This document shows, in pieces, positions 2,540 through 48,819 of a stretch of 64,000 nt of DNA. The translations under genes and the position numbers were made by a program. This stretch comes from Somniosus microcephalus (lineage: Eukaryota): NCBI GenBank assembly GCA_052327205.1, contig CM126224.1, positions 29,078,001 to 29,142,000 on the forward strand, written 5' to 3'. Under the pieces are notes generated by a model. It did no database searches, had not been told where the DNA came from, and worked only from the letters and a program-made list of their open reading frames with translations. Position 1 is the first letter of the stretch, and every line of letters starts with the position of its first letter.

Positions 2540-2915
2540 TCCAGGCTGACACTCCAGTGCATTACTGAGGGAGTGCTGCACTGTCGGAGGTGCCGTCTTT
2601 TGGATGAGACATTAAACCGAGGCCCCCGTTTGCTCTCTCAGGTGGATGTAAAAGATCCCATGGCACTATTTCAAAGAAGAGCAGGGGAGTTATCCCCGGT
2701 GTCCTGGCCAATATTTATCCCTCAATCAACATAACAAAAACAGATTATCTGGTCATTATCACATTGCTGTTTGTGGGAGCTTACTGTGTGCAGATTGGCT
2801 GCTGCGTTTCCCACATTACAACAGTGACTCCACTTCAGAAGTACTTCATTGGCTGTAAAGCACTTTGGGACGTCCGGTGGTCATGAATGCGCTATATAAA
2901 TGCAAGTCTTTCTTT
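2540..2915 (+). mobile_element. Deu-domain SINE (SacSINE1/AmnSINE-like), 5'-truncated
   Basis: Core gatgtaaaagatcccatggcactatttcaaagaagagcagggg...gtcctggccaatatttatccctcaa and tail gctatataaatgcaagtctttcttt; homologous to 25543-25996. Confidence 0.75.
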
Positions 2916-3640
2916 CCCCTAAATTGAAATGGATACTACTTGAGCCTGAGTACTGGAACTCATTGTTTTTCTTTCCTAATCTAGAATTCACTTGACAACA
3001 ACTCACTGTTTTATATGTGATTATTCTGTCTTCTGTGCTCATATTAATCTTAATACTGCTACCAGTTCATTACATAATTTAGGAATGATGTTGAAAATGC
3101 GTTTGTCATTTTATGTCCCATTAACGACACTGTGGAGACTACTGTCAACAAAGTGGAAGCAAAGCATTTGGTTAAAAACCTGTACAGTTGTAATTGCCTT
3201 GAAAGTAATCAATCAGAAAAAGTAAAACTGATCTTTTCAGTAGTTAATCTTAGAAGCAGTGCAAATGCTGACACTGTTAATTATAATTAATTCAAGTTGT
3301 GCCAAAAGACAATAAGTGACATTGGAGGCAAGTTATTTTGAAAGTTCCTGAAACTTTTTGCAGTGTACATTTAAGATATCTAATATAAAATCATGTCAAG
3401 CACTGCATTTGTGAGCATCAAATATTTTGACGCTAACCAGTTACATTCCTCTGAGATTTATCTATCTCCACACACTTCCAATTTAGATTTTACCAGCTTA
3501 GCCATGCTTAGTGCCAGACTCTAGTTTCAACTGGACTGAACTACTTTGGATCACTCATTACCACCTGAACCCATGTACTGTCTTCAGTCCCAAACAGATT
3601 AATAAGCTTCTGTTTAATTGTCTCCTGTTTTTAATGAAAG

Positions 3641-3862
3641 TCAAATAAGCCTTTCTGTTGGTGGAGGCTTCATTATGTTCCACATCTCCACCCTTGCTCC
3701 ATCCTTTTCCTGCCGACTGGGGCTATAGGTTCCCTGGGTTGCCCTCTTCTTTCGCATAGTGATCACCAGAACTATGATGGCGATGATGAAGATGACAAGA
3801 CCTCCAGCTGCAGCCACAGAACCAGCGATAATGGGAGTATCATTTCTCTGGGTGGTTCCTTT
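3641..3862 (-). CDS. Terminal exon B: transmembrane + CRB1-type cytoplasmic tail (GTY, ERLI)
   Basis: gttctacaacag|AAA GGA ACC, phase 0; [73 protein letters not shown]; intact and the same 73-aa length as exon A. Confidence 0.88.
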
Positions 3863-4901
3863 CTGTTGTAGAACATTACCATTGAGTAAAATGGAAGTGA
3901 GAAAGTTACACGGTTTGTTGTCCTTGTCCAGCAATGTGTATCTGGACTCAAGTAACAAATCCTCATCCTGACCTTACTGGGAGATTTTTCACCAACAGCA
4001 GTTTGTTCATAGAATAGGCAGGGACAGAGTCTGTCAGTAACAACTGTTGATGCAACAACATAGGTGCTTTCAAGCTGTGTACAGACTTGCTCATAGTGAA
4101 CTTGCCTTTAATTAGACATGGAAAAGATAAGACAATGACATCAGACCCAAAAAAGATTACTTCTATCCATTTGCGTAAAGAACACCATCACGGAATGTTA
4201 ACATGGAACCCTTTTCCAGCATAACCCTATATATAGATTTGGACAAATGCCTCCTTCATTAACACATAGTTCAGATTTTTTTTTAGATTAAATCAATTTA
4301 AATTTCAAGGCTACATGGCATTCTATCTTTAAAAAAAAAACACATGGTTCACTTAAGACTTAAAATTACTTTAAAAGTTCATTTAAATAAAAAAAAAAAT
4401 ATTTCCACCATAATTTCATATCAGTCAGAACACGAGCTTATCTAAAAACTTTTCAGTAAAATGCAACATGCTGGCGAAGGATTAGAATAATTGAATGGGA
4501 CACCTGTAAAAGCTACTTCTGAGACGGATGTGATCTTAGCAGAGGTGGTGATGGATCATATGAATGGGAATGCTTGAATCTGTCTTGGTTGACTGCAGTA
4601 GATAAAAAAAAGTTACATGTCATTCATGTGACATTGCAATGAGCAGCATACTCGGCGTGAATTTCCCCACTAGATGTTTCACTAGCTGCAGTTACTGTGA
4701 GAAAATTGCACAGCCAACATAAATTGGATTATATCAACCTCTCGGTGAAGCAGATGCCTAGAATGAGAGAATTTTCTCGGTGTATCAGAAGAATCCGTAG
4801 TCGTGAGCAGGCATATTGCTGAAGAAATGCTACCTGTAATGTCAGATATGAGGTCTACTCAAAACTAGAGCATCTTTTCCTCTAAGCGTTCAATCAAGCA
4901 A

Positions 4902-5123
4902 TCATATCAAGCGCTCTTCGGGTGGCACTTTAAGGACACTATCCATCTCCAGTCGAGCCCCAGCCACTTCCTGTTGGCTTGGATTGTACGTCCCTTCTGT
5001 CTGGCGCTTTTTACGGGCAGTAAGAACCACAAAAATAAGAGCTATTACAATCAGCAGCACACTCCCACACACCACCGGCACAGCTACTGCCAGCAACGGG
5101 ACAGGGTCGGCCATTTTCCCTCT
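4902..5123 (-). CDS. CRB2: Terminal exon A: transmembrane + CRB2-type cytoplasmic tail (FERM-binding GTY, PDZ-binding ERLI)
   Basis: cattgtctttacag|AGA GGG AAA ATG, phase 0; [73 protein letters not shown]. Confidence 0.95.
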
Positions 5124-16579: not shown

Positions 16580-16699
16580 CTAGCACCAGACAAACTCTGT
16601 CTTAGGCTCCTCGGTGTCCATGTGCAGGATTAGATAGGACAAGAACTGAAAAAGATTTTGCCAAAGCAACATTGAGCAGAAGAAAGAAAGGTCGCTTAC
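16580..16699 (-). CDS. Intron read-through alternative C-terminus, CRB1-B-like (hydrophobic segment + acidic tail)
   Basis: In-frame continuation past the donor gives VSDLSFFCSMLLWQNLFQFLSYLILHMDTEEPKTEFVWC*. The WQNLFQxLSYLIL motif matches the human CRB1-B tail as recalled. AATAAA on the minus strand at 16236-16241. Confidence 0.82.
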   Translation of the reverse strand, partial: VSDLSFFCSMLLWQNLFQFLSYLILHMDTEEPKTEFVWC

Positions 16700-16826
16700 A
16701 TCAAGCTCGCACTGTTCGCCTGCGAAATTGGCTCCACAAATGCATTCAAACTTGTTGACCAGGTCCTGGCAGGTCCCTCCATTCTGGCAGGGGTTTGGGT
16801 CACACTCATTGACTTCTTGTTCACAT
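16700..16826 (-). CDS. CRB2: Crumbs-family penultimate exon (127 bp; last EGF)
   Basis: ttttttttag|A TGT GAA CAA ... GAG CTT GAT|gtaagc; CEQEVNECDPNPCQNGGTCQDLVNKFECICGANFAGEQCELD; phase 2 to 0. This frame is not in the ORF track. Confidence 0.93.
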
Positions 16827-23493: not shown

Positions 23494-23784
23494 AAGTGTG
23501 GACAGCAGCTTGTAGTGCATACTGATAGTGCAAGTATTCAGCCAAAGACAGGTAGGCTCATGTATCTGTCTCTGCTTTACCATGAATTTACAATGATCAA
23601 CTGAAGTGCGCAAGGCCTTTAAAACAACTAGCGTTAAAGTAGTAGGAATCACAGACAAAGATAACTTAGATATCAGAGGAGTCGGGCAGCAATTCCTATT
23701 CTTAATTCCTACTACTTTGGTGCTAGTTGTTTTAAATGCCTTGGTCAATTTGAGGAGTTCCAGTATGTAGAACAGAACGCTTAC

Positions 23785-24652
23785 TCGCAGTATTGTCCAG
23801 TGAACTGGTTTGGACAGTTGCAGAAGTACAAGTTGATGCCGTCAATGCAGGTCCCGCCGTTTTTACATTTGTGGTTTATGCAGTCATCTATATCATTCTC
23901 ACAGTTCATTCCAGTGTAGCCCTGATCGCAGTTACACTTGTAACCTTCCACCAAATCGCTGCAATTACCATGAATACAGAGACTGGACACGCAGTCATCG
24001 ATGTTGATTTCACACCTTGTGCCTTCCCACCCGGCAACGCAATTGCACTGGAAAAGGTCAAATAGATCTTCGCACGTTCCATTATTCTGGCATGGGTTTG
24101 AGGAACATACTTCTGTGCCAAAGCATCCAATTTGAGCCGGGCGACCGCTCACTATAACAAACTGTTCAGTGTTTGTAAAAAAATGTTGATTGAAGTAAGG
24201 AAGATATATTCCACCAATTTTAACCACTCCAAGACAACCTGTAAAATTGTTGCTTAGTGTTATATTCACATTGTCTCGAAGAAAATTTAAGTTCCCAGCA
24301 GTGACTGTGCTGGTAAAATTGGAATTTCCATTAACAATAATGATCCACTTTGATGACATCACAAAAGGCTCCACCATCGCAATGAGCACTGAATGCCACT
24401 GTCCATCTGAGATGTTGATGTTACTCGAGAGAGTGAGGCCTTCCACACTGTTCCCACTATACAATCTGAACTGCAACTGCGAATTGTGGAAACCAAACCA
24501 AACAGAATCGGCACCATTGCTGGCCTGCAGCAGAACAGCATCCATATCTCTGGTTTTGAAGCCCATGGAAATGCTTATGAGATCTCTTGTGATTAACTGG
24601 TTGCCAATGTATACAATTGGATTTTCACCTTGAAATGTTGCATTAGCATGAC
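23785..24652 (-). CDS. CRB2: Crumbs-family internal exon (868 bp; laminin G3 + 3 EGF)
   Basis: gttcacag|GT CAT GCT ... TGC GA|gtaagc; ISDGQWH, FTGCLGVVKIGGIYLPYF, then three EGF repeats; phase 1 to 2. Confidence 0.95.
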
Positions 24653-24741
24653 CTGTGAACAGCCACAAAAATAGAAGATACATTAAGTTAAGTTATCTCA
24701 TTGAAACCTGCGCTGTTGATTCATCCCCGCCTTTGGATCCC

Positions 24742-25270
24742 TTCCACAACCTCCCCTCCCGCAACCTCCCCTCCGCAACCTCCCCCTCCGCAACCTCCCC
24801 CTCCGCAACCTCCCCCTCCGCAACCTCCCCCTCCGCAACCTCCCTTTCCGCAACCTCCCCCTCCGCAACCTCCCCCTCCGCAACCTCCCCTCCCGCAACC
24901 TCCCCTCCCGCAACCTCCCCTCCCGCAACCTCCCCTTCGCAACCTCCCCCTCCGCAACCTCCCCCTCCGCAACCTCCCGTTCCACAACCTCCCCTCCACA
25001 ACCTCCCCTTCCACAACCTCCCCTCCGCAACCTCCCCCTCCACAACCCTCCCCTTCCACAACCTCCCCTTCCACAACCTCCCCCTCCAGCAACCTCCCCC
25101 TCCAGCAACCTCCCCTCCAGCAACCTCCCCTCCCGCAACCTCCCCTTCCACAACCTCCCCTTCCACAACCTCCCCCTCCACAACCTCCCCCTCCACAACC
25201 TCCCCTTCCACAACCTCCCCCTCCACAACCTCCCCCTCCACAACCTCCCCCTCCGCAACATCCCCTTCCT
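24742..25270. repeat. 15-bp minisatellite (caacctccccctccg)n
   Basis: About 35 tandem variant units; explains the spurious ATSPS/QPPPP/GEVAE ORFs. Confidence 0.95.
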
Positions 25271-25542
25271 TACACAAGGATCTGCTTTTGAAGAAACAAA
25301 GATCTGTGCAACTAACGGTTGGTATATTTGGAACCAACTGCCTCCAGTTTGGTTAATGTTTTTGATGGAAATACCCACCCATGTGAGGAACTGCCAAATT
25401 ACATTGGCTGAATTGTTATATTATAACCCAAAGTTCTACTGATATGAAGAAAAGGCTGCAGTCCAATAAGTTGCTTTAAGGGCACCTGAATCTTTTTGCA
25501 AGGCTTTGTGAAAAGCCGCCCTGGTTTTAATAAAGCTACGCA

Positions 25543-25996
25543 GTGTCAGCTGTGGCTCAGTGGTAGCACTCTCGCCTCTGAGTCAAAAGGTTGTGGGTTC
25601 AAGCCCCACTCCAGAGACTGGAGCACATAATCCAGGCTGACACTCCCAGTGCAGTACTCAGGAAGTGCTGCACTGTCGGAAGTGTCGTCTTTCGAATGAG
25701 GCCCCGTCTGCCCCTTTAGCTGGGCGTAAAAGATCCCAGGGCACTATTTCAAAGAAGAGCAGGGGATTTATCCCCGGTGTCCTGGCCAATATTTATCCCT
25801 CAACCAACATCACTAAAGCAAGATTATCTGGTCATTAACACATTGCTGTTCATGGGATCTTGCGTGCAAATTAGCTGCCGCGTTTCCTAAATTGCAACAG
25901 TGACTACACTTCAAAATAAAAGTGCTTTGGGCTGTAAAGCGCTTTGGGACATCCTGAAGCCGTGAAAGGCGCGATATAAATGCAAGTCTTTCTTTC
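25543..25996 (+). mobile_element. Near-complete tRNA-derived Deu-domain SINE
   Basis: A box tggctcagtgg, B box ggttcaagccc, Deu-like core and (tctt)n tail. Confidence 0.8.
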
Positions 25997-27019
25997 TGGG
26001 TGGGATTTTTGTCCAATTTTATTTTTTAAAATATAAGTATGGAAATATGGGGAATTTGGATAAGAAATTCTGTTTATGGAGGGACAAATCCAATGTACGG
26101 GTTTATTTAATATATTATTCAATGGAAGAAAACTCCTGTTCTAGTGAATTCACCAGCCATTCAGATAGAAAACATGGGGATTAATCTGCCTCTGTTTAGC
26201 CCATAAGGAACAGCAGAATGTCTCACAGGGGTCATTGAGAAGTGGTACCTTGCGGTCACAAAGTACTTTATCTCTGTGTACTGGTTGAATCTCTACATTT
26301 TTTCATTTCAGTTCAGCTATTGGAAACAGTCTTCTATTTCAGTCTCTCTCTCAGCGGGCATGGTCTACTTTAGTTCAGATTGACAATCTGAAGAAATGGA
26401 GAATGTAGTTGATCCTTTGGCTCAGGTATACCTTGAATGCCCCATTTAGTAATTTCCAGGTAATCCATTCTAGTTAATAGTCAGTTGTTTCTGCTTTCTT
26501 TAGTTCATCGGACTGTCAATTAACGTTCCTGATGTGATCACATTCAGTTATAACAAAGCTGATTTTAATATTGGACATTCAGTATCAGTGGCAGTTTTCC
26601 ACATGCTAAGTTTCTGTTCTTCCTGTTAGGGGAAGCACCCAAGTGTAGGCTTCGTACTTTCCCACAGGGAAGAAGAGAAAATCAGTTGCTGAATTATCAG
26701 GGACAGTTCTCAGGCTTGTGCCAGTTACTTTTGCTCCCTTACTCTGGAAAATGGTGCAAGAGTGGGAAATCTGTAGGAAAGGAAAAAAACTTAAAATGTA
26801 AGATTTCACGATACGGTACTGTCCTTGGGGGAAGATTTCCCCCCTGTTTGCTATTCTTTACAGTTATATTTACAATTTTGTTACAAGTCGCAAATGAGAA
26901 TTTTTCCCAATGTTGCTTAATTATTCCATCCCAAATTGTTTTAAAGTCTAAAATGAGAATAGTGTTTTGTCACTTTTTTTGAAAGAAGGTCTCTTGAAGC
27001 TGGTGCATTATTTTAGCCT

Positions 27020-27236
27020 TCCAGAGTATAAGCCACACCCTGATGGGCCACTGGCCTCTGAGTATAGGGCACACACTGATGGGCCCTGGCCTCTCGGAGT
27101 ATAGGGCACACACTGATGGGCCCTGGCCTCCCAGAGTATAGGGCACACCCTGATGGGCCACTGGCCTCCCAGAGTATAGGGCACACCCTGATGGGCCCTG
27201 GCCTCAGAGTATAGGGCACACACTGATGGGCCACTG
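27020..27236. repeat. ~36-bp minisatellite (agagtatagggcacacactgatgggccctggcctc)n
   Basis: Six tandem copies visible. Confidence 0.9.
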
Positions 27237-27554
27237 GTTTAATTTCATCTGAATGCCTGATGTCAGCTGTTGGGAAGTGAGCTGAACCCAGGAACTGTTC
27301 CATAGTGGAAGAAAGAAAATTAGAAGGAAATTTAGCCCTAAGTCACTCTTCTGCAAATCCTACCAACCAAGGCAAAGTAATGTTAGCAGACAACTAAAAT
27401 CAGATCTTCCAATTCTCTCCTCATCCACTGTCAGTGCATGGTATAGGGAGATGAGAGAGAAAAATTGAAGTTTAAAATAAAGAACTTAATTCAGTGTAGT
27501 GTGTACTTTGAGGTTTAATGTTTCAAAACTTGCAATAGATTTTTAAAAGACTAT

Positions 27555-28241
27555 GGCCTAGAAATTGGGTTTTGGCGCAGCGACGGCTTTAGCGCCGGAA
27601 GTTAGTGCCGGAGCTAAGTCGCGCTGGGTGGGCCAAAAATTCACTACTTCTGCGCCCAAACGGCTGCCGGCGCTGCTGAAAGCTGTTAGCGCCTGAAAAC
27701 TGGCGCTATGCGCTGAATTTCGGCGCTATTCCGGCGCTGCGGCGCCCGCTGCGGTGCGGCAGGTTCGGGAAGTGCAGGCCTCCTCCTTCCCTTAAGGAGG
27801 AGCTGCCTGCACCCGGCCGCGGCCCGCGATAATCTTTTTAAAAATGAGCCCGGCACCTCGGACAAGTGCCGGGCTTGCTTCTGTTCCGGGGGGGGGGGGG
27901 GGGGAAGTCCGGGGAGGGAGCTGCGGCCAGGCGGGCGGCGGGAAAGCGGCCGGCCGCCGCGGGGCCTTTAATGCGCCGGCGCAACGTTCTGTAAGGCACC
28001 TCTGCCAGAACGTTGCTTGCGGCTGCCACGGGCGAGGCGGCCGCAACTCAATTTCCGAGTTCGGGCGGGTTACCATGGCAACCGGGACGCTGCGCACACC
28101 GATGACGTCATCGGTGCCGGCGCAGCGCTACCGGCCTAACGCCGATTTAGGGCCCCTGTCAATTTCAAAACTGGCCATAACTTCGCCGCTAGGCCCTCTA
28201 GCGCCTCAAAAGCGGCGCTAAGGCCAGTGAATTTCTAGGCC
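27555..28241. mobile_element. GC-rich PIF/Harbinger-like MITE
   Basis: 12-bp TIR ggcctagaaatt / aatttctaggcc with 3-bp TSD TAT (27552-54, 28242-44); CpG-rich interior. Confidence 0.72.
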
Positions 28242-28310
28242 TATATTTTTAATGTTTCCTGGTATCTGAATATTTGCTTATACAATTAAATGAATTCTTG
28301 CAGTTCTTAC

Positions 28311-28476
28311 ATTCATATCCACCTGGAAGGTTCTGACAGTGACATCCTGCAGGGCATGGATCAGTCTCACACCACACTTTCTCCGCACAGGTTCTTCCAG
28401 TGAACGCCTGTGGACATTGACATTCAAAATCGTTCCACGTCACAGTACAATTGCCTCCATTTTGGCAAGGAACATC
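28311..28476 (-). CDS. CRB2: Crumbs-family internal exon (166 bp; EGF repeats)
   Basis: ttttatgcag|GAT GTT CCT ... TAT GAA T|gtaaga; [22 protein letters not shown]...GGYE; phase 0 to 1. Confidence 0.94.
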
Positions 28477-29334
28477 CTGCATAAAAGCAATAAGTATGTC
28501 GGTCACACAAACCAATTTCTTTTTCACTATATATCATTTTGTCACATCTGTCAGTAGTAACTACACCATCTGAGTACAATATATAATTTAGTTTATGTTT
28601 CCTACATTACAACAGCGACTTCACTTCAAAAGTACTTAACTGACCGTAAAGTGGTTTGGGACGTCCTGATTTCATGAAAGGCGCTATATAAATGCAGATC
28701 TTTCTTTTGTTAATAGATTGTAATGAGAATGTGCAAGGATCAGTTTTACTTTTGTGTTTGAAAATGCCAGTGCAATGAGAGTGAATCTCTTGAATATTCA
28801 CAGCAATGCTTTTTAGAGAAAGTTTCAGCTCACACCCAGCAGGGGTAGTTTAACCAGACTACAAGCTAACGATGTTTACTTGTTGCAATACTCCAACCTA
28901 CAACATGGCTCTAACACCAGCAGTACATGAATAAGTGTGGAAGATTAGGGGGAACTCGGTGCTGCCTTGAAACAAGCATCTCCTTTAGTAAAAGCTTAAC
29001 ATTTTTCAGGTTCTAGGAAAACATTAAAAATAAAATGAAAATTTGCTAGGAAGTTCATACATTTTGGATAACACCCTCTATTTTGAATTACCCATAACTA
29101 TTGCACTATTTCACCACTGCTAAGGAAATAGAGATTACAAATTGGCCAACTTTCCACATAGTCAGTCTGCACAAATAGAGATAGGATTTTACATGTTAAA
29201 GCCTCTTCTTCAAAGGATCAGCTGTTCATTTCTAGTTAATATCCATGTTTCTACTTTTAAATTTGATATTTACTTACTTTAACTTCTACATGTTTATTTT
29301 CTTCCCTTTTATTTTCCAGTCCAATGTTCACAAT

Positions 29335-29730
29335 AAGTAGCTTGACTCAGTTGATAACACTCTTGTTTCTGGAGCTCAAATGTTTTGGGTTCAAGTCCCG
29401 CTCCAGGATTTGAACACATTAAACTAGGCTTGGAAGAGCGTTACATTGTTAGAGGTGCCGTCCTTCAAATGAGACATTAAACCAAGGCCTTGTATTCCTG
29501 TTTTTCTTGTTCAGGTTGACATTAAAGATCCTATGGAACATTCCCTCCCAACCAGTTCCACCAGAAGGTTCAATAGTTATTCATCTCATTACACATTCAT
29601 CATTGTGGTATCTCGCGTGCCAAATTGGCTGCTGTCTATCCCTACATAATAGTGATTGCATTTTTAAAAAAAATCACTGTTTATGTAACACTTTGCGATG
29701 TTTCTGAGAGACATGATTAACATGCTACGT
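29335..29730 (+). mobile_element. Diverged tRNA-derived SINE of the same superfamily
   Basis: tgactcagttg...gggttcaagtccc head; gaggtgccgtccttc...gagacattaaaccaaggcc core similar to 2540-2915. Confidence 0.6.
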
Positions 29731-29852
29731 TTACCTATTCAAACAGAAAACTACTAATTTGTAGAGCAGTAGCACAGCATCCTTCATTTTAAACGATATA
29801 TAAACCTAAACCCATTGGTCACACAAAGTATACAGACAAGTTATTTTCTTAC

Positions 29853-30412
29853 CACACAAGAATTATCACTGATGCAGTCCTTGATCACATTTACAAGTGT
29901 TTTATTGTTGTAAACACCCAGGGGTGAGGTGTAATTCCAGATTTCCAGTGGGTAAAACTCCAGTTGGTTATCGTTGAGCCTTATGTCCTGCAGGCAGCCC
30001 TTGAAAGCTCCTCCCCATGCAGCAGGCTCCTCATTCGGACCTTGGCCAACGTGGACAGTGTCGAATGGTTGAATCTTCACAGAAGACAATAGAAAATCTA
30101 GCAAGATAACATCTGATTCGCTAACAGTTACCCAGACTTCATCAAAGCGAATTTCTATCAGTCGTTTAATGCCATCGGCGAGGTTCATAGATGACTCTAT
30201 CATCGTAGTTTTTGTCTCAATACAAATTCTGCTGTTGTTCAGATATATAGTGAGATAAGGAGTTTCCCCCTTGCTGAGTTGTAATATGAAGCCATTTGCC
30301 TTTAGTGTGCGAATGAAAAAAGAAATAACAAATTTTGTGCCGGGATCATCAGTAATAATAAAAGAGGCAGAGCTGCTTGAATTCTTATTGCCGAATGTCG
30401 CAGAGATGTATT
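29853..30412 (-). CDS. CRB2: Crumbs-family internal exon (560 bp; laminin G2)
   Basis: ttctgcag|AA TAC ATC ... TCT TGT GTG|gtaaga; SFFIRTLKANG and WGGAFKGCLQDIRLN motifs; phase 1 to 0. Confidence 0.94.
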
Positions 30413-30760
30413 CTGCAGAAGGGAGAAGAAAATGGATTGGTTGAATGTTTAAAAAATATATCACGCATACCAAATGATATCTGGTGGAGGAATAAGTTAA
30501 ATTCATAAATTAGTTCATGGGTGATTAAACGAATACTTCGTTCAGCATTCAATGGTCATTTTCTTTTGAAAGTTGACCAGATCAGTTTAATCATAGAATC
30601 ATAGAAGTATAGAAATTTACAGCACAGAAGGAGGCCATTTGGCCCATCGTGTCTGTGCTGGCACTCTTTAATACTCCTTAAAGATAAACCAAATATTTAC
30701 CTGTCATTTCTCTCTAAATAAACCATAAATTCAGCTCAGAACTTGTGTTTGTCTCACGTT

Positions 30761-31997
30761 CATAGAAACATAGAAGATAGGAGCAGGAGTAGGCCTCGAG
30801 CCTGTTCCGCCATTTAATGAGATCATGGCTGATCATCCAAATTCAGTACCCTGTCCCTGCCTTCTCCCCATATCCCTTGATCCCTTTAGCCTTAAGAAAT
30901 ATATCCAACTCCTTTTTTTTGAATATATTTAATGAATTGGCCTCAACTGCCTTGTGTGGTAGAGAATTCCACAGGTTCACCACTCTCTGGGTGAAGAAAT
31001 TCCTCCTCATTTCAGTCCTAAATGGCTTACCCCTTATCCTTAGACTGTGACCCCTGGTTCTGGACTCCCCGCCATCGGGAACATCCTTCCTGCATCTAGT
31101 CTGTCTAGTCCTGTTAGAATTTTATAAGTTTCAATGAGATCCCCTCTCATTCTTCTAAACTCTAGCGAATACAAGCCTAATCGACCCAATCTCTCTTTAT
31201 ACGTCATTCCTGCCATCCCAGGTATCAGTCTGGTGAATCTTCGCTGCACTCCCTCCATGGCAAGAACATCCCTTCCTCAGATAAGGCGACCAAAACTGTA
31301 CGCAATACTCAAGGTGTGGTCTCACCAAGGCCCCGTACAACTGCAGCAAGACATCCTTGCTCCTGTACTCAAATCTTCTCGCTATGAAGGCCAACATACC
31401 ATTTGCCTTCTTAACCGCCTGCTGCACCTGCATGCTTACCTTCAGCGACTGGTGCACAAGGACACCCAGGTCTCGTTGCACTTCCCCTTCTCCCAGTCTA
31501 TTGCCGTTCAGATAATAATCTGCCTTCCTGTGTTTGCCACCAAAGTGGATAACCTCGCATTTATCCACATTGGGCAGATGCATGGCAGATGCAGTATTAT
31601 CACCCAACCTGTCCAAATCATACTGGAGTTTCTCTGCATCCTCCTCACAGCACACACGCCCACCCAGCTTTGTGTCGTCTGCAAACTCGGAGATATTACA
31701 TCTAGTTCCCTCGTCTAGATCATTAATATATATTGTGAATAACTGGGGTCCTAGCACCGATCCCTGTGATACCCCACTAGTCATTGCCTGCCACTCAGAA
31801 AAAGACTCATTTATTCCAACTCTTTGCTTCCTGTCTGCCAACCAGTTCTCTATCCAAGACTGTACCTTACCCCCAATCCCGTGTGCTTTAACTTTGCACG
31901 CTAATCTCTTATGCGGGACCTTATCGAAAGCCTTCTGAAAGTCCAGATACACCACATCCACTGGTTCTCCCTTATCTATTCTACCAGTTACATCCTA
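30761..31997 (-). mobile_element. CR1 LINE 3' fragment (RT domain)
   Basis: DVVYLDFQKAFDKVPH...QGSVLGPQLFTIYINDL...FADDTKL. Confidence 0.9.
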
Positions 31998-33384
31998 CAG
32001 ACCAAAGCTGCAGCTATGTGCATGGTACTTCCCTGATGACTTTATTCGCCACATTCTCTTGCCTTGTGTTCCAGGCCACTTGTAAAATACAATCTGCTTT
32101 CCTATTCACAATATAAAACCGTTCTCTCACTTTTCTCAATTTCTGTTGGTTAACAACCTCAGTGACTGGCAAGCTACTAATGATTTTTACTCATTACAGT
32201 TCAATTCCTGTTCTTTACAGAGCCTGTTATCTGTCAATTTGTTTTTTAGCTAAAAATGGCAAAACAGAAAAGGTTTTCTTTGAGTAAAAGAAATTACCTC
32301 GATTTTGCCGTTATTTTGCCTATTATTTTTAACCTGATGTGTGTTTTTTTTGCTATAATCAGGATGGTGTGATCACTGAAAGTAAATAATAAAAAAAACT
32401 ATTAACAGCTATGTATCCTCATTGGGCAGTTGAAGCACATGCAAAAAAAAAAGTTTGTAAAGTAAACAACCATTCCTGGAAGTGCTTTGGGAATCTCCCA
32501 GTTAATTCTTTGGACTCAAATAATAATTTTCAGCTGGAAAAGAGGAAGAAGCTTTAAATACAAAAATCCATGTTACTATTTCATAAGAGCTAAAGGGAAT
32601 CTACTAATCAACATTCTCTTGTTTTTTTCCCCCCTAATAAACAATGTAAACCGTTTTTTATCACAGGTGATGTTAGCTGCTGCTGGGTGTAGTGGCTCCA
32701 CAGCTGACCCACAAAGCACCATTGCCAGTTTGGGTATCTTCATGATGCCAAAGGCTTCAAAGCTGCCCAATTAAGAATGTTCCAGTGGAAGTGGAGTCCT
32801 GTAATGATGCCCTCACACCACACATATGTGCAATAAAAAGGGTCTTTGGATTCCCAATTACTCTCCTACAAGCCTACGGAGAGTGACGCCAGGAAGGTAT
32901 TGTTACAGGGTGGAGGGAGGGTGGATGTGTCCAGTGGTTGGTATAATGCTGCTAATACAGTCCGCTTATAGTGGGTGCGTTGGATGGTAAAATGATCTAT
33001 GGTTGTAGAAATTAAACAGTGGCCCCAGACACCCTCCAGAGGATCCGGAGTGCATCATTAAAAGTTACAAAGCTAAAGTAAATCCAAGTGTGTTAAAGGT
33101 AGCATCACATGACAGATGCTGGAGGCTGAATCAAATAAACTGCTAAAAAAAAAGTTTGAACAATTAATTTGAGTTTAATGTACTTCAAAAATCGCCTTAT
33201 TAAATGGAGCTTGAAACTTCCGTGTTAATTTTTGAAAGGCGGCAGCTGCAGTTCGGGAGCTTAAAAAATTGACAAGCACATATTTTAGAGGGAAGGCGTT
33301 AACAACATGTGTTTTTCTGCAGAAAATAGTTCGTGAAAACTTAGTCTAACAATACCCACTGATTTCTCCACCTGTGTACCTGGC

Positions 33385-35108
33385 CACCTCTCTCCCCCTC
33401 CCCCTCCCTCCCTCTCTCTCCCCCCTCCCACCCTCCCTCCCCTCCCTCTCTCTCCACCCTCCCTCCCCTCCCTCTCCCACCCCCTTCCCTCCTCCTCTCC
33501 CTCCATCTACTCCCTCCCTCCCCTCTCTCCCACCCCCTTCTCCCCCTCCCTCCCCTCTCCCCCCTCCCTCCCCCCCTCTCCACCCCCCTTCCCCCTTCCT
33601 CCCTCTCCCCCCTTCCTCCCCCTCTNNNNNNNNNNNNNNNNNNNNNNNNNNNNNNNNNNNNNNNNNNNNNNNNNNNNNNNNNNNNNNNNNNNNNNNNNNN
33701 NNNNNNNNNNNNNNNNNNNNNNNNNNNNNNNNNNNNNNNNNNNNNNNNNNNNNNNNNNNNNNNNNNNNNNNNNNNNNNNNNNNNNNNNNNNNTCTCCCCC
33801 ACCCCCCTCTCCCACCCCCCCTCCCTCGCTCTCTCCCACCCCCCTCCTCGCTCTCTCCCACCCCCTCCGTCCCCCTCTCCCACCCCCCTCTCCCCACCCC
33901 CCTCTCTCCCACACCCCCTCTCCCTCGCTCTCTCCCACCCCCTCCCTCGCTCTGTTCCACCCCCCCTCCCTCGCTCTCTCCCACCCCCTCCCTCGCTCTC
34001 TCCCACCCCCTCCCTCGCTCTCTCCCAACCCCCTCCCTCGCGCTCTCTCCCACCCCCTCCCTCGCTCTCACCCACCCCCCTCGCTCTCACCCACCCCCCC
34101 TCGCTCTCTCCCACCCCCTCGCTCTCTCCCACCCCCCTCCCTCCCCCTCTCCCACCCGCCACCCCCCCCTTCCCCCTCCCCTCTCCCAACCCCTCCCTCC
34201 CCCTCTCCCAACCCCCTCCCACCCCCCTCCCTCCCACACCCTTCCTCCTATCTCCCACCCCCCTCCCTCTCTCCCCCTCCCTCCCTCCCACACCCTCCTT
34301 CCCACTCCCTCTCTCTCCCCCCTTCTCTCCCTCCCTCTCTCCCCCCCCTCTCTCTCTCTCTCTCTCCCCCCTCCCTCCTTCTCCTCTCTCTCTCTCTCTC
34401 GCCCTCCCTCCCACCTTCTCTCCTCTCCCTCCCCACCTTCTCCCTTCTCCCTCCCCTCCCCCCCTTCTCCCTCCCCCTCCCCCCCTTCTCCCTCCCCCTT
34501 CTCCCTCCGTTCTCCCCCCCTCCCTCCCCCCTTCTTCCCCCTCCCTCCCTCCCCCCTTCTTCCCCCTCCCCCCTTCTCCCCCTCCCTCCCCCCTTCTTCC
34601 CCCTCCTCCCCCCTTCTTCCCCCCTCCCTCCCCCCCTTCTCACCCCCCTCCCTCCCTTCTTCCCCCCTCCCTCCCCCCTTCTTCCCCCCTCCCTCCCCCC
34701 TTCTTCCCCCTCCCTCCCACCTTCTTCCCCCTCCCTCCTCCTCCCCCTCCTCCCCTCTCCCTCCCTTCTCCCTCACCCCCCTTTCTCTCTCTCCTTCTCC
34801 CCCTCTCCCCTTCCCCCCTTTTCCCCCTCCCTTCTCCCCTTCNNNNNNNNNNNNNNNNNNNNNNNNNNNNNNNNNNNNNNNNNNNNNNNNNNNNNNNNNN
34901 NNNNNNNNNNNNNNNNNNNNNNNNNNNNNNNNNNNNNNNNNNNNNNNNNNNNNNNNNNNNNNNNNNNNNNNNNNNNNNNNNNCCCTTCCCCCTTCTCCCC
35001 TCTCTCTTTCTCCCCTCTCCCTCCCCCCTTCTCCCCTCTCCCCTCCCCTCCCCCCTTCTCCCCTCTCCCTCCTTTCTCCCCTCCCCCTCCCTCTCTCTCC
35101 CTCCCTCT
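33385..35108. repeat. C/T-rich low-complexity tract with two assembly gaps (N runs)
   Basis: Almost pure polypyrimidine on the + strand; N runs near 33626-33792 and 34843-34982. Confidence 0.95.
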
Positions 35109-35850
35109 AGACAGAAACCGCCACTGCTGTTCGCGCTGTAGCACTGACGACTGCAACCTCTTTTATTGTGATTAGTCCAAAATGACTAAATACAGTTTCT
35201 TATATTTTGCCACTGAAATGTCAGGATGCTTTAGATGATTTCAAATGCTCTCCCTCAGGAACAAAAGTGCAAAGAACTTCCTGAATTGCCCGATGGAGCC
35301 GACGTGGTGAATATGTTGTGATTGATTTCTATGGTGATGGTAAATGGTTATCATTAATTGCCCAGTATAGACGGTTGCCTGCCATTAGCATGGGCGCTAT
35401 AAGTGGTGGGGACTGTAATGTAAAAGTGCCTTTTTAACTGCATTTTATATTAATTACCCGAGTGTTTTTTCACCAAAGATTAGCCAGCCCTCCCCCAGTT
35501 AAATGTTCAGAGGTACCAGGTCCAGACCTGTACCGGCCAGTCACACCACTCCAGTCTGAAAAGTTGCCTTAATATCTACAAACTAAATCCCGATGGAGAA
35601 TCTAAAGTGGAAGTATAATAACGTCTTCGGTATCGCACTCGGGAGTAGAATAATCCTACATTAGTACACACTTTACCCTGTTCTTTGATCATATTTTTTG
35701 AAGAGAGATTGGGTGAATCTTGTGCACATTGTTTGGAATGGAAGTCTGCATTAAGCACTGCCATGTAAACAGAGGTTCTATTTACCTTTCCTCAATAATC
35801 TGCCCAAACAACAACCTTAAAATAGCATTATCTACTGCACCAGTGTGAAA

Positions 35851-36228
35851 TAGAAACATAGACATAGAAACATAGAAGATAGGAGCAGGAGTAGGCCATT
35901 CAGCCCCTCGAGCCTGCTCCGCCATTCAATGAGATCATGGCTGATCATCCAAATTCAGTACCCTGTCCCTGCTTTCTCCCCATACCCCTTGATCCCTTTA
36001 GCCTTAAGAAATATATCTAACTCTTTCTTGAATATATTTAATGAATTGGCCGCTACTGCCTTCTGCGGTAGAGAATTCCACAGGTTCACCACTCTCTGGG
36101 TGAAGAAATTCCTCCTCATCTCTGTCCTAAATGGCCTACCCCTTATCCTTAGACTGTGACCCCTGGTTCTGGACTCCCCCGCCATCGGGAACATCCTTCC
36201 TGCATCTAGTCTGTCTAGTCCTGTTAGA
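35851..36228 (-). mobile_element. CR1 3' fragment
   Basis: Near-identical to the copies at 10041, 22660 and 30761; (catagaaa)n tail. Confidence 0.85.
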
Positions 36229-37950
36229 CACTCCAGCTACCATAATGGTACTTTTGAGTGAAACTTCCAATTTATACTAAATTGTTAGCAATTATGAGCT
36301 GCGCACTACCCAAACTCTCGTCCTCCAGAACCCTCGGAACCGGTTGGGAGCCTTCATCCAGTTAATGAATATGCTACGCAATTCTGGAATTTTTTGTTCT
36401 TACTGAAAATTTTTTATTTGGGGAATAGTTCTCCCTAAACAACTTATCTGCTCTCTTTTAAAAAAAAATTATGATATTGTTACTGTTCCTCCCCAGAAAC
36501 CTATAGAGATTAAGGGTGCCATGAGAATACTTGAAAAGGACATAGCAGCAGATGCACAGCATCCTGGAGCTGATTTCCGTCTCGGACGTACATTGGGCAG
36601 GTGGCGGGTGGGGCATATGTTGTGCTGTGCCCGCCCCCTGACGTCGATGGGAGGCCCGATCCACTTTCATGACTGGACCTCATTTAAATTCAGGTGGTGA
36701 GCTGCCAGTGCAAATCGTGCTGCTTGTAGGGTGCTCGCTGTTTTGAGTGTGTGGGAAATATGACCGGGTAGAGACTGAAGTGGGCCTGCAGCAGCACCTT
36801 AAGGGGTAGGGCGTCAATGGAGCAGCACATTAAAGTGGCAGGGAAAAATGTAGAGAGCACATCAAGGAGCAAGGAATTGAACTTAAGGGAGCCTCTAAAA
36901 CTTAAGAGTCTCAAAAATAATGAAGCAGAAAGTCATTGCCAGACTTGCTTCTGGTTTATCCCGACTGCATAATCCCTTTAAGTAGCGCTGCAAATAGCCG
37001 CCTTCCGATCTGTAATGCCCACGGTTTTGTGGACGGGTTGAGGAAAAAGTCAGGACAATGCTGATTGGCATGAAGATGGCGTTTGTGCCCTGATAATGTC
37101 ATAGATCCCTCATTTTAATATATTAATTATGCCCCATTGGCTTTGGGCAGGAGTGGTCATTGTACAAATTTAGGCCCACCCATAACTCGCAATGGGCAGA
37201 ACTCCCGAGCAGTCAGCAACTTTACTGTGATTTTCATCCCACTACAAAACACAGGGCAGTAGGGAGACGGAAAGTGTACCTTTTTAATATGTTTCATTTC
37301 AAAATGTTTCACTTTTGTGCTTAGAAATATATCTGATACCTTCATTTTCAAATCCATATCTAAATTCTAAGTATCTGATAAAAGGCATGGTGTGATATAC
37401 AAGATTAGGCATATCCTTAAGAGGTCTAGAAGCTGCCCTCTAGTATGATTTTAGTCTTGTGGACTAAATTGTTTAGAGTGAAGTGATCATTTTACTTTTA
37501 TTAAAGAACCTCCCTCACTGTGCTAGGCTAATGAGTAGTAATTTAATCATTTATGTGGTCCTTAGAAAGTGGAAATCAAAATCATGTTGATACATAGGTT
37601 CTGTGACAGTTGCAGTCTAACTTAAAAAATTGGGAGGAAAACTTGTTAACCTTTGTATTTATCAATAAAGTAATGAATGTATTCTTGTGCAAAATGGCTT
37701 TTTATTTGCACCCATGAGCCTGACCTGACTTTCTCCTCATCCTCAACACTCGTGAATTGTCTACCAATTCCAGCAGTTTTTCACAGTGGAGCATGTTGGG
37801 GTTAGGGCAAGAATTGACCAAACTCATCACAACCATGACAGTTGAGTTGGCTTCACCTGGTCATAAATGCAACTCTGATCTCAATTGTTTCCCAATATCT
37901 CTCCTTAAAAAAAACACAATAAAATAAAATTAATGTTCCAATATGCTTAC

Positions 37951-38886
37951 CGTGAAGGCACAAGGGACCTGCATATGGCCGGAAACAATCGCACTTATAG
38001 TTCGTCCACAGATCCACACACTTCCCATTACTGTTACATGGGTTCTGACGGCACCAGTTTGTCCTTTCACAGCCAAGTGTAAAACTCCATGCCATATTTT
38101 CTGAAATTGTTTGTGGCAATATAAGACTCTTATCAATTTCCAAATCCTGAAAGCAACCAGTAAAATGATCCTGAATTGAAAGGTACGTTCCTGGGTAGCC
38201 ACCAATGTGCGTTGTCCTAAATGAATCCAGTGAAGGAAGGGTAGCCGCACTAATGTGCTTCGAGTCTGAGCAAGTGTCGTTTGGACAACTAGGATGAGAT
38301 AAGTTTACCAGGAGGTCTTTCCCCAGAAGAACCGTTAACTGATGCCACTCACCATCATTAACTTGATGAATGAATGTAATGCTAATTATCTGACCATTTA
38401 TCACAGCTATGGACATTAGCTGGCCGCTATAAAGTTGAATATGTATGTATTCATCGAGTAGATCTCCTCGATAGATTAATAGCACATTTGGTATGGTTGT
38501 CCTAAAGCGTAGACTGATGCTAATTGGCTCATCATCTGCAGCTCTCCTGCTCTGATTACCATCTGGCATTTGTACAATCACATAGCCGCTGATTAAGGAG
38601 AACGTTGTTGAAGTTGAACAAGTAGCATCATAAAAGCCAGGAGGACATTTGCAGATGTAGCTGTGAGTGTTATCCACCAAGTTTGGGATGCACGTTGCTC
38701 CATTGTGACAGCTGTGCTCAAGACAGCCAGCCAGTTGAATTGAACAGTTCTTTCCTCCCCACGTGACACCATCTTCATCCATTGGGGGGCAATGGCATGT
38801 GTAGTCTGCAATCACATCTTTACAGGTGCCTCCATTTTCACAAGGACTGTTCTCGCATTCATTGATATCAACTTGACATATCACCC
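37951..38886 (-). CDS. CRB2: Crumbs-family internal exon (936 bp; 2 EGF + laminin G1 + EGF)
   Basis: ttttttcctctcag|GG GTG ATA TGT ... CTT CAC G|gtaagc; ORF 37853-38884 with SLRFRTT, VNDGEWH and FTGCFQDL laminin-G motifs; phase 1-1. Confidence 0.95.
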
Positions 38887-39772
38887 CTGAGAGGAAAAAA
38901 TATCATCTTAAAACAGCTTCCTTGTTCTTTTAAAACAATATATCTTATATTCCTGCTTTTAAGTTCTGAATATAAATTATTATTTTGTAAAATGTCCCTG
39001 CCTTAGTGCTGTGGGATTCATCATCACAGTTACATTTTGAAGTGCATCGAGCTTGTTGATTGTTTCTTTCCTTCATTAGGGATAGACTAGTAACAGCTAC
39101 CTTGTCAAACAGAACTGTTTCACTCTGATTTAGACAAATATGTAGTGAACTCTTGTTTAAAGGACTTCCAAACTTAAAACCAAAACATATTAATAATATA
39201 TGTACATACCTTTTAATCCTCGATGCTGGTAGCTTGTGGCTTCCTGGGCCAGCTATATTAGTTTTCTGCTTACAAACTAACTGAAACAAACACTGATATT
39301 CAAGCTCCTCAACTGACAAGACATGCTTCATTGCTGTAATAACCATGTGGTCCAAAAAAAAATCTTCTGTTTGCCCTTTTCCCACTCTAGTTTCTGTTCC
39401 TTTCTCTTACCTCTCCTATTTTTAATTTTCTACCGCATATGTTTGAAATATGTTACTTGCCTATTTTTCCTTCACCTCCAGGGTCCCAGTTTCCATATTG
39501 TAGGTGGGAGCCAAGTGAAATTTTTTTTTAACTTTCTTTGGCTGAAATCTAGCTCCAAAGGTCAGTTTTTAGATCATTAAGGCTCAATAGTCTAACTGTT
39601 GACATTATATATCTTTGACATAATTTTCTCGCGTTAAATAGTGGAATCCTACCACACAATGAGTTATCTTGTCCGCTGCTCAGGCAGAGTGATCATAGCC
39701 TGTAAAAATAACAAGTATTTCAAAATCTTGATGGCACAAGATACTGGAGCTCCAACACAACAGAATGGCAGA

Positions 39773-40290
39773 AGGTGATGGTGGGGGATTCAGCGATGGT
39801 AATGCCGTTGAATGTCAAGGGGAGGTGGTTAGACTCTCGCTTGTTGGAGATAGTCATTGCCTGGCACTTCAGTGGTGCGAATGTCACTTGCCACTTATCG
39901 GCCCAAGCCTGAACCTCGTCCAGGTCTTGTTGCATGCGGGGTAATGACGGATGAGTGACTTCAGTTATGTGGAGAGACTGGAGTGGGGAGATGAGAATTT
40001 TATGTTTTTACAGCGTGAGTTGTTGTAATCTGTTTGAAAGGGTGGTAGAAGCAGATTCAATAACGTTCAAAAGGGAATTGGATAAATAATTAAAAAGGAA
40101 AAACTTGCAGGGCTACGGGGGAAAGAGCAGGGAGCGTGGGACTAATTGGAGAGCTGTTTCAAAGAGCCAGCACAGGCATGATGGGCTGAATGGTCTTCTT
40201 CTGTGCTGTATGAATCTCTAATGAGCTGGGATTGTTCTCCTCAGAGCAGAGAAGGTTAAGGGGAGATTTGATAGAGGCGTTCAAAATTGC
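39773..40290. mobile_element. Adjacent HER1-like (minus, 39773-39940) and CR1 (plus) fragments
   Basis: MQQDLDEVQAWADKWQVTFAPLKC, followed by CR1 3' end gggtggtagaagcagattcaa...gggctgaatggtcttcttctgtgctg. Confidence 0.7.
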
Positions 40291-40601
40291 TTTTCTTTTA
40301 CCACCTACTCCATGAAGAGAAAAATCACCTTGGCATATTCTTTCTGCACCTCCTACTATTGTAGAAGAGTGGCTGACAGAGTTTTGGGGAAACTACTTGC
40401 CCTTTTACCTAGGTTATGGTGCAAGATGAAAGAGGAAAAATTGAAAATGGTTTCTTTTTTACTTTACAGTGCCATATTTCACACAAATTACTGGTGCGCA
40501 CCCATTGCAGTAGCAAGCTACCAGATTGAATCCGGAGAGAGAGGACCACAATCATACATAAGATTGTACTTTCACATCAGAAAAATCTCAGAAGTGCTGT
40601 T

Positions 40602-42050
40602 ACATAAGAACATAAGAAATAGGAGCAGGAGTAGGCCAATCGGCCCCTCGAGCCTGCTCCACCATTCAATAAGATCATGGCTGATCTGATCCTAACCTCA
40701 AATCTACTATCACTCTCCATCCCACCCGAACCCATGTGATCTCCCGGGAGAGGCGAAAAACCAGATAAAAAACCCAATGGCCAATTTGGGAGAAAAAATC
40801 TGGGAAATTCCTCTCCGACCCATCTAGGCGATTGAAACTCGTCCAGGAGATCACTCTGTCCCTGTATTTCCTACAGTACTTACCTTTTGTAAAAGGTGAT
40901 CTCCACCCCAGCCAGGAACAGGCCCAATTTACTCTTGAAGGACACCTAGCTGGCAGCCTGTTCGATGTCTCCACTAATCCCTGTGAATAGAACCATCTCC
41001 TGAAATCTAACACAGAATTAGAACACAAGAAGTAGGAGCAGGACCAGGCTACCCGGCCCCTGGGCCCGCTCCACTACCCACAGGGCCATGACCATTCCGA
41101 ACCTAGACTCATGTCCAATTTCCTGCCCGCTCCCCGTAACCCTTAATTCCCTTTACTTCTAGGAAACTGTCTATTTCTGTTTTAAATTTATTTAATGATG
41201 TAGCTTCCACAGCTTTCTGGGGCAGCAAATTCCACAAACCTACTACCCTCTGAGTGAAGAAGTTTCTCCTCATCTCAGTTTTGAAAGAGCAGCCCCTTAT
41301 TGTAAGATTATGCCCCCTAGTTCTAGTTTCACCCATCATTGGGAACATCCTCACCGCATCCACCCGATCAAGCCCCTTCACAATCTTATATGTTTCAATA
41401 AGATCGCCTCTCATTCTTCTGAACTCCAATGAGCAGAGTCCCAATCTACTCAACCTCTCCTCATATGTCCACCCCCTCATCCCCGGGATTAACCGAGTGA
41501 ACCTTCTTTGTACTGACTCGAGAGCAAGTATGTCTTTTCTTAAGTATGGACACCAAAACTGTATGCAGTATTCCAGTTGCGGTCTCACCAATACCTTGTA
41601 CAACTGCAGCAATACCTCCCTGTTTTTATATTCTATCCCCCTAGCAATAAAAGCCAACATTCCATTGGCCTTCTTGATCACTTGCTGCAACTGCATACTA
41701 ACTTTTTGAGTTTCGTGCACCAGGACCCCCAGATCCCTTTGTACTACAGTACTTTCCAGTTTCTTGCCATTAAGATAATAACTTGCTCTATGATTTTTCC
41801 TGCCAAAGTGCATAACCTCACACTTTCCAGTATTGTATTCCATCTGCCAAATCTCTGCCCACTTACTTAGCCTGTCTATGTCCCTTTGCAGGTTTTTAAT
41901 GTCCTCCTCACTCACTACTTTCCCTCCCATCTTTGTATCATCTGCAAACTTTGATATGTTACACTCGGTCCCCTCCTCCAAATCGTTAATATAGATTGTA
42001 AAGAGTTGGGGACCCAGCACTGACCCCTGCGGAACACCACTAGTTACTGT
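40602..42050 (-). mobile_element. CR1 LINE 3' portion with open 303-aa ORF2 C-terminus and composite 3' UTR
   Basis: ORF 41109-42020 LGPQLFTIYINDL...FADDTK...VRPQLEYCIQFW...GIKGYG is uninterrupted. Confidence 0.9.
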
Positions 42051-44139
42051 TGGCAGCCTTGGTTTAGATAGATCCAGGCACTTTTCATATTATGCTCAGG
42101 AAAGCATCAGAGCTCTGATAATGTCCAATAGCTGGTAGATATAATAATACTTTAGGGTTGTCTAATTCAACCGCTTCCAAGACACAAACTGTGTTTAATT
42201 TTAAGGAAACTATCTGTTGAATTGTTTTTATTTTATTTGACACTTAAAAAAAAATGTATGCACAACTCTCTCCCCCTCCACTGGAATTAAATAAGATTTA
42301 TGGGTGGATTGTTAAGTCCACATTTATAATAAACAAAAATATCAGCAATCAGAGCATAGTGAGAGGTTCAGTACAAAATCATTACCTGGAGACATTATAT
42401 GATTCCTCTCTCAATCTTCTGATATTGTACATGTCATTAGATCGACCGACTATCGAAAGAAAACCTTTATGTTGTTTTCAATTGACTTGTTACTCTGTGA
42501 TCTCAAACTATTTTTTGAACTGTGTTTCTAATGTGGAAAGCCCCTGATGGGCGACCGTCACTTGTGCAATAGCTTCAGCTTGTAAAATGCAACAATTAAA
42601 ATGTGTCCATCAGGCCAATATATCTTCATCTAAGTGCAAGACTCTTAAACAGCAAAATACCAGCCCTGCCCTCATTTTTGATATTTCTATATTAATCACA
42701 TTTTAACTTTTAATAACTTATTTTAACTTGCAGGGTGTTTTTTGCGAGTTATATTTCTCTCTTGATTATTTTTGAGTCTAGCACCATGTTTTACATCATT
42801 GTTTTTCTTCACTGGAGCATTTTCTTTTGTGATGACCTGCCCAGTCAGCTCGGTTTTAATGCCACCTTGGTAACATTTGCTTTTTGTTTAACGCCAGCAG
42901 CCAACCTCAGCAATTACACCCTACACCTCCCTTACACTTCCTGTTTCAAACCCTGTAATTTGGTTTCCAACCAGCACAGATACTGCTCTTGTCCAAGTCA
43001 ACAACAATATTCTCTGTGACAGTGACTGTAGTCCATTTTTGCTCCTCGTAGCTGGCTGCTGCTTTTGACATTGTTGACCATTGTATCCTCCTCCAAAGTC
43101 TCTCCTTGGCTTCGTAGCACTTTCAGCCGTGTAACTGCCTTTTCAAAATCCCTCCTTATCTCTTCCCTGTCTGATTTCAAAATCCTATTAAAGTCTTTAC
43201 TTTTCAACTGCTCGTTAGCTCCTGCCCTTAAATCAACTCAACTCAACCTGTCCTTCACCCTTCCACTTAGTGTCCATTTCATTCCCCAATCTGTAAAGCA
43301 CTCTGAGGCGTCTTTCTGACATAGTATAATCTATTTTGTATCCTGTTTCTGTACGTATTGTCTACTCTTCACATTCTGCACCATCACCATTGAAAATCCT
43401 GCTAATGCTTTTTTTTTAGAATTAAATAAAAATTATATTGACATTTAACACTGTATTTGTATACAGTTATACAACTTTATGAAGCAAATCAATATATCTA
43501 GCTTTTGTTTGGGCTTTTTCCCTTGTTCCTCGCTTAGCTGAGTCCCCTCCACCCCCCCTTAATTTACTCCATTGTTAAATGGTATAGATAAGGTCATTCA
43601 AGGTAAGCCAAGGCAAAGAACAGGGGACACCGACTAAAATTGATGTCATCAATTGTCTTCCAGGTGGAGTGGTGAAAATGAAAACCTTTGATTCATTCAA
43701 GATCCAGATAAACGATGTGGTGGGGAGATTACATTTATTCTGTTTAGATGGTTGAGCTAACATGGCCAAAAATGTCTCCCATCTATATTCATCTTGTGAT
43801 CAAAAGAATGGAACAGTTCAGACATGGGCATTGCTACAGGCACACCTTGACCAACTAGTTAGGAATTACACTTAAGTGTTCTGGGCAGAGACCTGTCCTT
43901 GGGCCAGTTTTCTCCCGCCTTCCAAAAAATAACCAGATAGACTGATGAAACTTGTCTTCAGGAGAACCTCAAGTAGAATTGTCTGTTGAGAATGGAAGTT
44001 GAGCTGTAGGACTTCCTAATGTGGAGTCCATGCTGTAGCATTATGTACTAGATTGTTCCAGCTTCATTATCATTTTTGTTTGAGGGAAAATGAATGTAAC
44101 AGTCATGACAAATGTCATCTTTCAGACAAAATTCCTTTT

Positions 44140-47130: not shown

Positions 47131-47304
47131 ACTGGTCAGGTCCCAGGTTCAGTCCCTTGCCCTTTGCTCAGTTTTGTGAGGGTGCACCAATTGGAGTAAC
47201 AAGAAGCTTAATTTTCCTGGGCTAAAGAGGCAAAAAGTCATCCGCAGTTGCTGTTTGCTATCCAATGTCCCCTGCTGCCAAAGTATGTGAGTGTGGATTT
47301 CAGG

Positions 47305-48736: not shown

Positions 48737-48819
48737 TGTGGTTTTCCTGTCTGCATTTGTGCAAGTGTCCGACTATAACAACACACCGAGTGTGTGTGCA
48801 CTATCCTGGTGCCAGTCAG

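Follow-up and report, generated by a model that had tools for sequence, protein, structure and literature searches.

How a single Crumbs gene comes to hold two complete transmembrane (TM) and cytoplasmic tails, whether both are used, and when the pair arose are the questions raised by a locus of the shark Somniosus microcephalus. The window, meaning the whole stretch of DNA analysed here, comprises 64,000 nt of contig CM126224.1 (positions 29,078,001 to 29,142,000). The reading favoured here, with a probability of about 0.8, is that shark CRB2 has two alternative terminal exons, termed A and B, and that the A/B pair goes back to a duplication in an ancestral Crumbs gene of vertebrates, earlier than the separation of CRB1, CRB2 and CRB3. 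That the gene anatomy is real and its history ancient is well supported.

Anatomy of the locus and identity of the gene

The features of the window, all on the minus strand, are as follows.

4902..5123, minus: coding part of terminal exon A, TM and 37-aa tail of CRB2/CRB3 type (Q5, E7, E33; ERLI); from sequence and an RNA junction from 16700
3641..3862, minus: coding part of terminal exon B, TM and 37-aa tail of CRB1 type (A5, K17, W25, T33; ERLI); from sequence, orthologous tails and a Heterodontus RefSeq model
2889..4901, minus: 3' UTR of the A isoform with exon B inside, likely a shared 3' end; from RNA contig X1 (2889-5123)
16700..16826, minus: last EGF exon, ending in the phase-0 donor GAT/GTAAGC common to both tails; from sequence, the X1 contig and tblastn
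16580..16699, minus: read-through ORF (39 aa and stop), a possible third C-terminus; from sequence comparison with the paralogue at C3
21485..21601, minus: penultimate EGF exon; spliced in the X1 contig, and tblastn
23784..60722, minus: EGF and laminin-G exons further 5' in the CRB2 ectodomain; matched in tblastn by the Heterodontus protein at 74-89% identity
Near 60722-60582, 58939-58748, 55637-55512, 38893-37952, 30485-29850, 28470-28306 and 24659-23784, minus: ectodomain blocks; tblastn

Exons A and B are each 222 nt long, lie on the minus strand after a CAG, and encode 73 aa ending in ERLI and a stop, and the phase-0 donor after 16700 matches both acceptors. The A stop lies 1039 nt from the B start, and the acceptors are 1261 nt apart. 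Identity between the exons amounts to 24/37 intracellular residues, 7/36 upstream residues and 108/222 nt; because 18 of the 24 shared tail residues are written with different codons, the pair is no recent copy. In both respects, the two intact phase-0 exons about 1 kb apart and the age of the tandem, the preliminary description of this locus is borne out. The gene has the EGF and laminin-G ectodomain of the Crumbs family, and each exon encodes one TM segment, followed by a 37-aa tail that bears G8-x-Y10-x-P12, E16 and the terminal ERLI. Tail B also matches the solved Crumbs tail 4WSI/4YL8 (E 1.5e-11), and binding of PALS1 and FERM proteins by both tails is a prediction from motifs. Ten exon blocks of the window were matched by the horn-shark protein in tblastn, and the 5' part of the gene extends past the window, with more EGF exons on the neighbouring stretches L015 and L016.

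When the large laminin-G/EGF exon was searched against the 6.4-Gb genome, only two long-ectodomain Crumbs genes came back at E<=1e-20, the one in the window (locus C23) and one at C3, while tail searches found five exons at three loci: two at C23, two at C3 and one, of CRB3 type, at C31. In a 30-row ectodomain tree, which did not resolve CRB2 as a single clade, the window gene grouped with chondrichthyan genes including Callorhinchus CRB2 (99/97) and the C3 gene with named CRB1 proteins (98/91). Judged by its sequence, the window holds the 3' part of the shark CRB2 gene. The search for both tails in the paralogues showed that shark CRB1 at C3 also carries an A-type exon, followed 241 nt on by a B-type exon, both in phase 0, and that the order of read-through tail, A and B is common to the two genes. 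The CRB3 locus at C31 carries exon A alone, and differs from shark CRB2 in having no long-ectodomain match and no B exon.

Weak uDENN or dDENN matches stand tail-to-tail beside all three loci (C23:28.72 Mb, E 0.55; C3:261.745 Mb, E 0.59; C31:38.784 Mb, E 0.16, the last below the Pfam cut-off), and none of the 27 matches of a core DENN search fell near the three Crumbs loci. Human CRB-DENND1 gene pairs exist, with which tail-to-tail DENN neighbours agree.

Evidence on the use of the two tails in sharks and other vertebrates

Splicing of the last EGF exon to exon A was seen in three of eight RNA sets (X1, X8 and X13). After covering 2889-5123, the X1 contig goes on with exons 16701-16826 and 21485-21601; the loose ends at 5123 in X8 and X13 read as the EGF exon. 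Among the joints listed for the eight sets, no junction into 3862 (exon B) was found, in contigs that drop rare forms; X5 gave fragments only, and the raw reads of X23 and X24 had zero depth over the bins with A, B and the last EGF exon. Contigs from related species are unbroken from A through B in X1 (2889-5123), X4 (3032-5123) and X9 (3404-5123). No poly(A) end of its own was found for each exon, as contigs using A continue over B (X1 and X9); A transcripts thus cross B, and competing acceptors with one 3' end therefore look likely. The preliminary description had spoken of tandem alternative last exons and of a locus that switches tails by 3' splice choice. Both exons are present, but they appear to have one 3' end in common, and the proposed choice agrees with the observed junction 16700>5123 and with annotated isoform pairs, whereas 16700>3862 was not seen among the joints listed for the RNA sets. 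No repeat or pairing structure that would explain the choice of acceptor was found in 3000-5600. The X4 and X9 contigs break off precisely at the exon A acceptor, 5123, perhaps a sign of more than one upstream path, such as unspliced intron or another exon.

Annotated proteins do join the ectodomain to B, and the indirect support for this exon is strong. In Heterodontus, a CRB2 RefSeq pair (XP_067868625.1 / XP_067868626.1) shares an identical ectodomain with either tail, and its X2 model joins the last EGF exon to B; the Xenopus laevis models XP_018087310.1 / XP_041429989.1 likewise place either the A or the B tail on one identical ectodomain, which is orthologous to that of the shark gene. 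These vertebrate CRB2 pairs are automatic models, B isoforms being predicted XP_ entries, and many bird B forms are named just CRUM1. All four shark CRB1 RefSeq pairs show the same ectodomain with either tail. Across five chondrichthyan CRB2 clusters, 28 of the 35 listed members end in A and two in B, one of the latter reaching B via an intronic extension and not via the EGF junction.

It could be that exon B, although ancient and homologous, is hardly or never spliced in shark CRB2 and persists inside the 3' UTR of the A transcript. The missing B junction, the A-using contigs that cross B and the small number of chondrichthyan members ending in B all speak in its favour. This explanation is nevertheless unlikely, as B is conserved at the protein level, with up to 92% identity to frog tails and an identity to the B exon of the CRB1 paralogue of 31/33/14 of 37 by codon position, its acceptor and phase are intact, and the Heterodontus model holds an EGF>B join. 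The substitutions of the X8 relative may be set beside these figures: at least five fall in the 37-aa B tail, where all five listed are synonymous, and five of the seven listed upstream of the cytoplasmic part of B change the residue.

Exon B proved intact in relatives and conserved out to frogs, reptiles and birds, the disruption that would have spoken against the preliminary description thus being absent from them. Among 83 matches to exon B, which include many homology-based bird models and two chimeric ones, 79 carry CRB2-type ectodomains (frogs, salamanders, turtles, lizards and birds), and the six amphibian and reptile RefSeq CRB2 pairs compared all have an identical ectodomain followed by the A or the B tail. 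In axolotl and turtle the annotation includes acceptor variants of B that differ by one residue, which suggests read support behind the B annotation. Many non-mammalian tetrapods thus appear to keep both CRB2 tails. The B tail was absent among six Polypteridae and three Latimeria CRB2 cluster members. Monotreme CRB1 records all have the B tail (4/4) and marsupial CRB2 records the A tail (2/2), and the CRB1-type exon A occurred in longer proteins in five matches, all chondrichthyan, among 77 candidates, a weak sign of its absence from tetrapods. A stretch of about 234 aa within the N-terminal EGF repeats is left out in CRB2 models of shark and turtle (P0246, P0251, P0254 and P0105), a splice variant of the ectodomain common to both.

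Relationships and age of the tail pair

In a tail tree of 43 rows and a mere 66 columns, all 15 B tails came out together (98/99), and a second group united all 21 tails of A and CRB3 (98/93). With the 37-aa tails alone, the B group and the A group were each recovered in 92% of bootstraps; with the TM segments alone, B was recovered in 9% and A in 46%, and the TM part by itself is uninformative on tail grouping. Separate ectodomain and tail trees thus place the tails by type, not by gene. The preliminary assignment of A to the CRB2 type and B to the CRB1 type holds across paralogues in this respect, but it overlooked that A is also the tail type of CRB3.

The AU tests, whose hypotheses came from the outcomes that the preliminary description named as contrary to it and which were run after the tail tree had been seen, rejected a clade of chondrichthyan CRB2 A and B tails (p=0.0005), and with it a duplication specific to cartilaginous fishes. 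A clade of CRB1 A and B tails was rejected as well (p=0.012), and a clade of all CRB2 A and B tails was not (p=0.085). The claim that the duplication preceded the paralogue split is supported by the same pair in CRB1 and by the grouping by type, but the all-CRB2 clade tempers it.

Diagnostic residues were counted over 40 in-register tails, three of the 43 rows having been dropped for indels. E7 is present in all 19 in-register A and CRB3 tails; K17, W25 and a non-acidic residue 33 (non-E33) are present in all 15 B tails; and E7 and W25 are both absent from six invertebrate tails. The tail of one amphioxus protein is likewise of the invertebrate type. Over positions 4-16, B is nearer to the invertebrates than A (11.3-11.8 vs 8.0-9.3 of 13), while over positions 24-37 the A tail of each long gene is nearer to them than its B (11.0 vs 9.6 and 10.4 vs 7.5 of 14). 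The invertebrate state would accordingly be kept by B in the FERM-motif half and by A in the PDZ-proximal half.

The pair might instead be younger than the split between CRB1 and CRB2, the product of separate duplications that converged, or of exon transfer or gene conversion between the paralogues. The unrejected clade of all CRB2 tails and the unresolved TM-only trees leave room for this, and the TM start of shark CRB1 exon A resembles that of CRB3 nearly letter for letter. Such a history would, however, call for reciprocal events that gave the two genes an identical order, phase and read-through tail. When like tails of CRB1 and CRB2 are compared, third codon positions are close to saturated (B: 14/37), and the rejected CRB1 clade runs against such a history too. 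A post-split origin is consequently quite unlikely, and duplication in the common ancestral gene is preferred. Lamprey and hagfish records did not turn up among the sequences compared, and we therefore infer the timing of that duplication relative to the genome duplications.

Read-through tail, nested CRB3-like unit and proposed history

An ORF that reads on past the last EGF donor is conserved in both long genes, CRB2 (16699-16580, minus) and CRB1 (L008 6594-6704). Against the C3 read-through, the ORF of the window is identical at 19/26 aa, with nucleotide identity of 19/24/9 of 26 by codon position, and the best match elsewhere in the intron reaches 8/26. A protein-cluster search with the read-through exon gave EGF clusters only. 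The C3 read-through tail matches the last 16 residues of mouse CRB1-B as given in the available part of its description (PMC7335077). A chimaera CRB2 model (P0272) ends in a read-through tail of the window type. The read-through is thus a putative third C-terminus, of CRB1-B type and without ERLI; the preliminary description overlooked both this tail and the retention of two CRB2 tails in many non-mammalian tetrapods.

The last intron of CRB1 at C3 holds a signal-peptide exon (L007:8350-8431) and an S/T-rich exon (L006, about 6228-6280) that feed exon A. The three-exon build of CRB3 at C31, with signal, S/T-rich and A-type tail exons, is the same as that of this nested unit, and RefSeq crumbs-3 short proteins of 118-121 aa come from a unit of the nested type in whale shark, epaulette shark and chimaera. 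In three teleost models, P0282, P0333 and P0369 (Megalops, Anguilla and Periophthalmus 'crumbs homolog 3b'), the CRB1 B tail is joined to an A-like segment that has diverged. The nested unit's persistence in ray-finned fish is suggested, and crb3b may be that unit.

By analogy, one of the window exons could serve mainly a short transcript from an internal promoter and not the long CRB2. CRB1 has exactly such exons feeding A, and the X4 and X9 contigs that stop at 5123 could mean a second upstream partner. Against it, long-ectodomain junctions to A were shown directly, and a scan that recovered the S/T-rich middle exon at C3 and C31 found none in the window intron, so that a main role in a short transcript is very unlikely. 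A weak S/T-rich look-alike lies at 5663-5625 (minus; E 2.9-18), 540 nt upstream of A, with an AG in the same phase and no good donor, a chance resemblance or a relic. An assembly artefact fusing CRB2 to the last exon of CRB1 can be dismissed: because related-species contigs run unbroken from A through B in three RNA sets, the tandem is no mis-join, and window B matches the true CRB1 B at C3 in only 25/37 aa.

On the preferred reading of two alternative terminal exons in shark CRB2, splicing joins the last EGF exon to A, the nearer of the two, and likely also, in certain tissues, to the more distant B. The acceptors would compete under a shared 3' end, with A as the default and B as a minor or tissue-restricted form, and where the donor is not spliced the third, CRB1-B-like tail without ERLI would result. 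The ancestral locus may have held, in order, the long ectodomain, the read-through tail, an internal short unit, A and B. After whole-genome duplication, CRB3 would have kept the short unit and A, and in mammals the tail that became fixed was likely B for CRB1 and A for CRB2, as a few protein records suggest. Partition of one ancestral set agrees with the A-B pair in both paralogues and with the grouping of tails by type, for which the AU support is partial. A wider reading is plausible and somewhat favoured, namely that a single combinatorial gene made up the ancestral vertebrate Crumbs locus, its ectodomain being long or short and its tail the read-through, the A or the B type. Mammalian CRB1, CRB1-B, CRB2 and CRB3 would then be frozen splice forms of that gene, with sharks, amphibians, reptiles and birds still switching by tissue between CRB2 tails of different function.

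Both tails keep ERLI and would be expected to bind the PALS1 PDZ domain. The tails diverged in complementary halves, and a switch would tune FERM-partner binding, phosphorylation or trafficking on a constant ectodomain. The A tail has E at position 7, where B tails have Q, H or R, so that FERM-side interactions are most likely what the switch would alter. According to one review (PMC6928914), only ERLI contacts the PALS1 PDZ domain, moesin engages both motifs, and phosphorylation by aPKC disrupts the binding of moesin; fly mutations of Arg7 or Tyr10 are cited, in the part of another paper available, as abolishing moesin recruitment (PMC3564977).

A close known system is the mammalian choice between CRB1-A and CRB1-B, described in the available part of Ray et al. 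2020 (PMC7335077), in which the TM and intracellular domain taken at the Crumbs 3' end depend on the cell type. It differs in that CRB1-B, as presented in that part, lacks the FERM and PDZ motifs, whereas shark CRB2 alternates two full ERLI tails. CRB2 is mentioned nowhere in Ray et al. 2020 (PMC7335077; 0 occurrences), and a 2024 review, in its accessible part, goes no further than CRB1-A, -B and -C and the five genes of zebrafish (PMC11129452). In literature outside subscription journals, no description was found of tandem ERLI tails or a nested CRB3, nor any interpretation of the RefSeq pairs. The A and B isoforms are already in RefSeq as automatic models. The mammalian CRB3A/B switch removes ERLI. 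Duplicates can partition ancestral splice forms after whole-genome duplication; in contrast to a completed partition, the undivided state here survives in both long shark paralogues and in the CRB2 of amphibians, reptiles and birds.

If this history is true, the origin of CRB3 and of the paralogue-specific tails would be explained, and the classification of the family would change, as outside mammals a gene cannot be told by its tail. Work on CRB2 in chick and Xenopus, antibodies against the tail and rescue constructs may then cover one isoform only. Whether CRB1 and CRB2 tails differ in function would become testable on a fixed ectodomain, a question for which the substitution of CRB2 for CRB1 in retinal gene therapy provides context.

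Elsewhere in the window, intronic low-complexity tandem arrays occupy 24700-25420 and 33337-35172, the second holding both N stretches, and the ORFs at 31200-31994, 41112-42089, 52128-52715 and 63087-63551 resemble, and are presumably, fragments of LINE reverse transcriptase.
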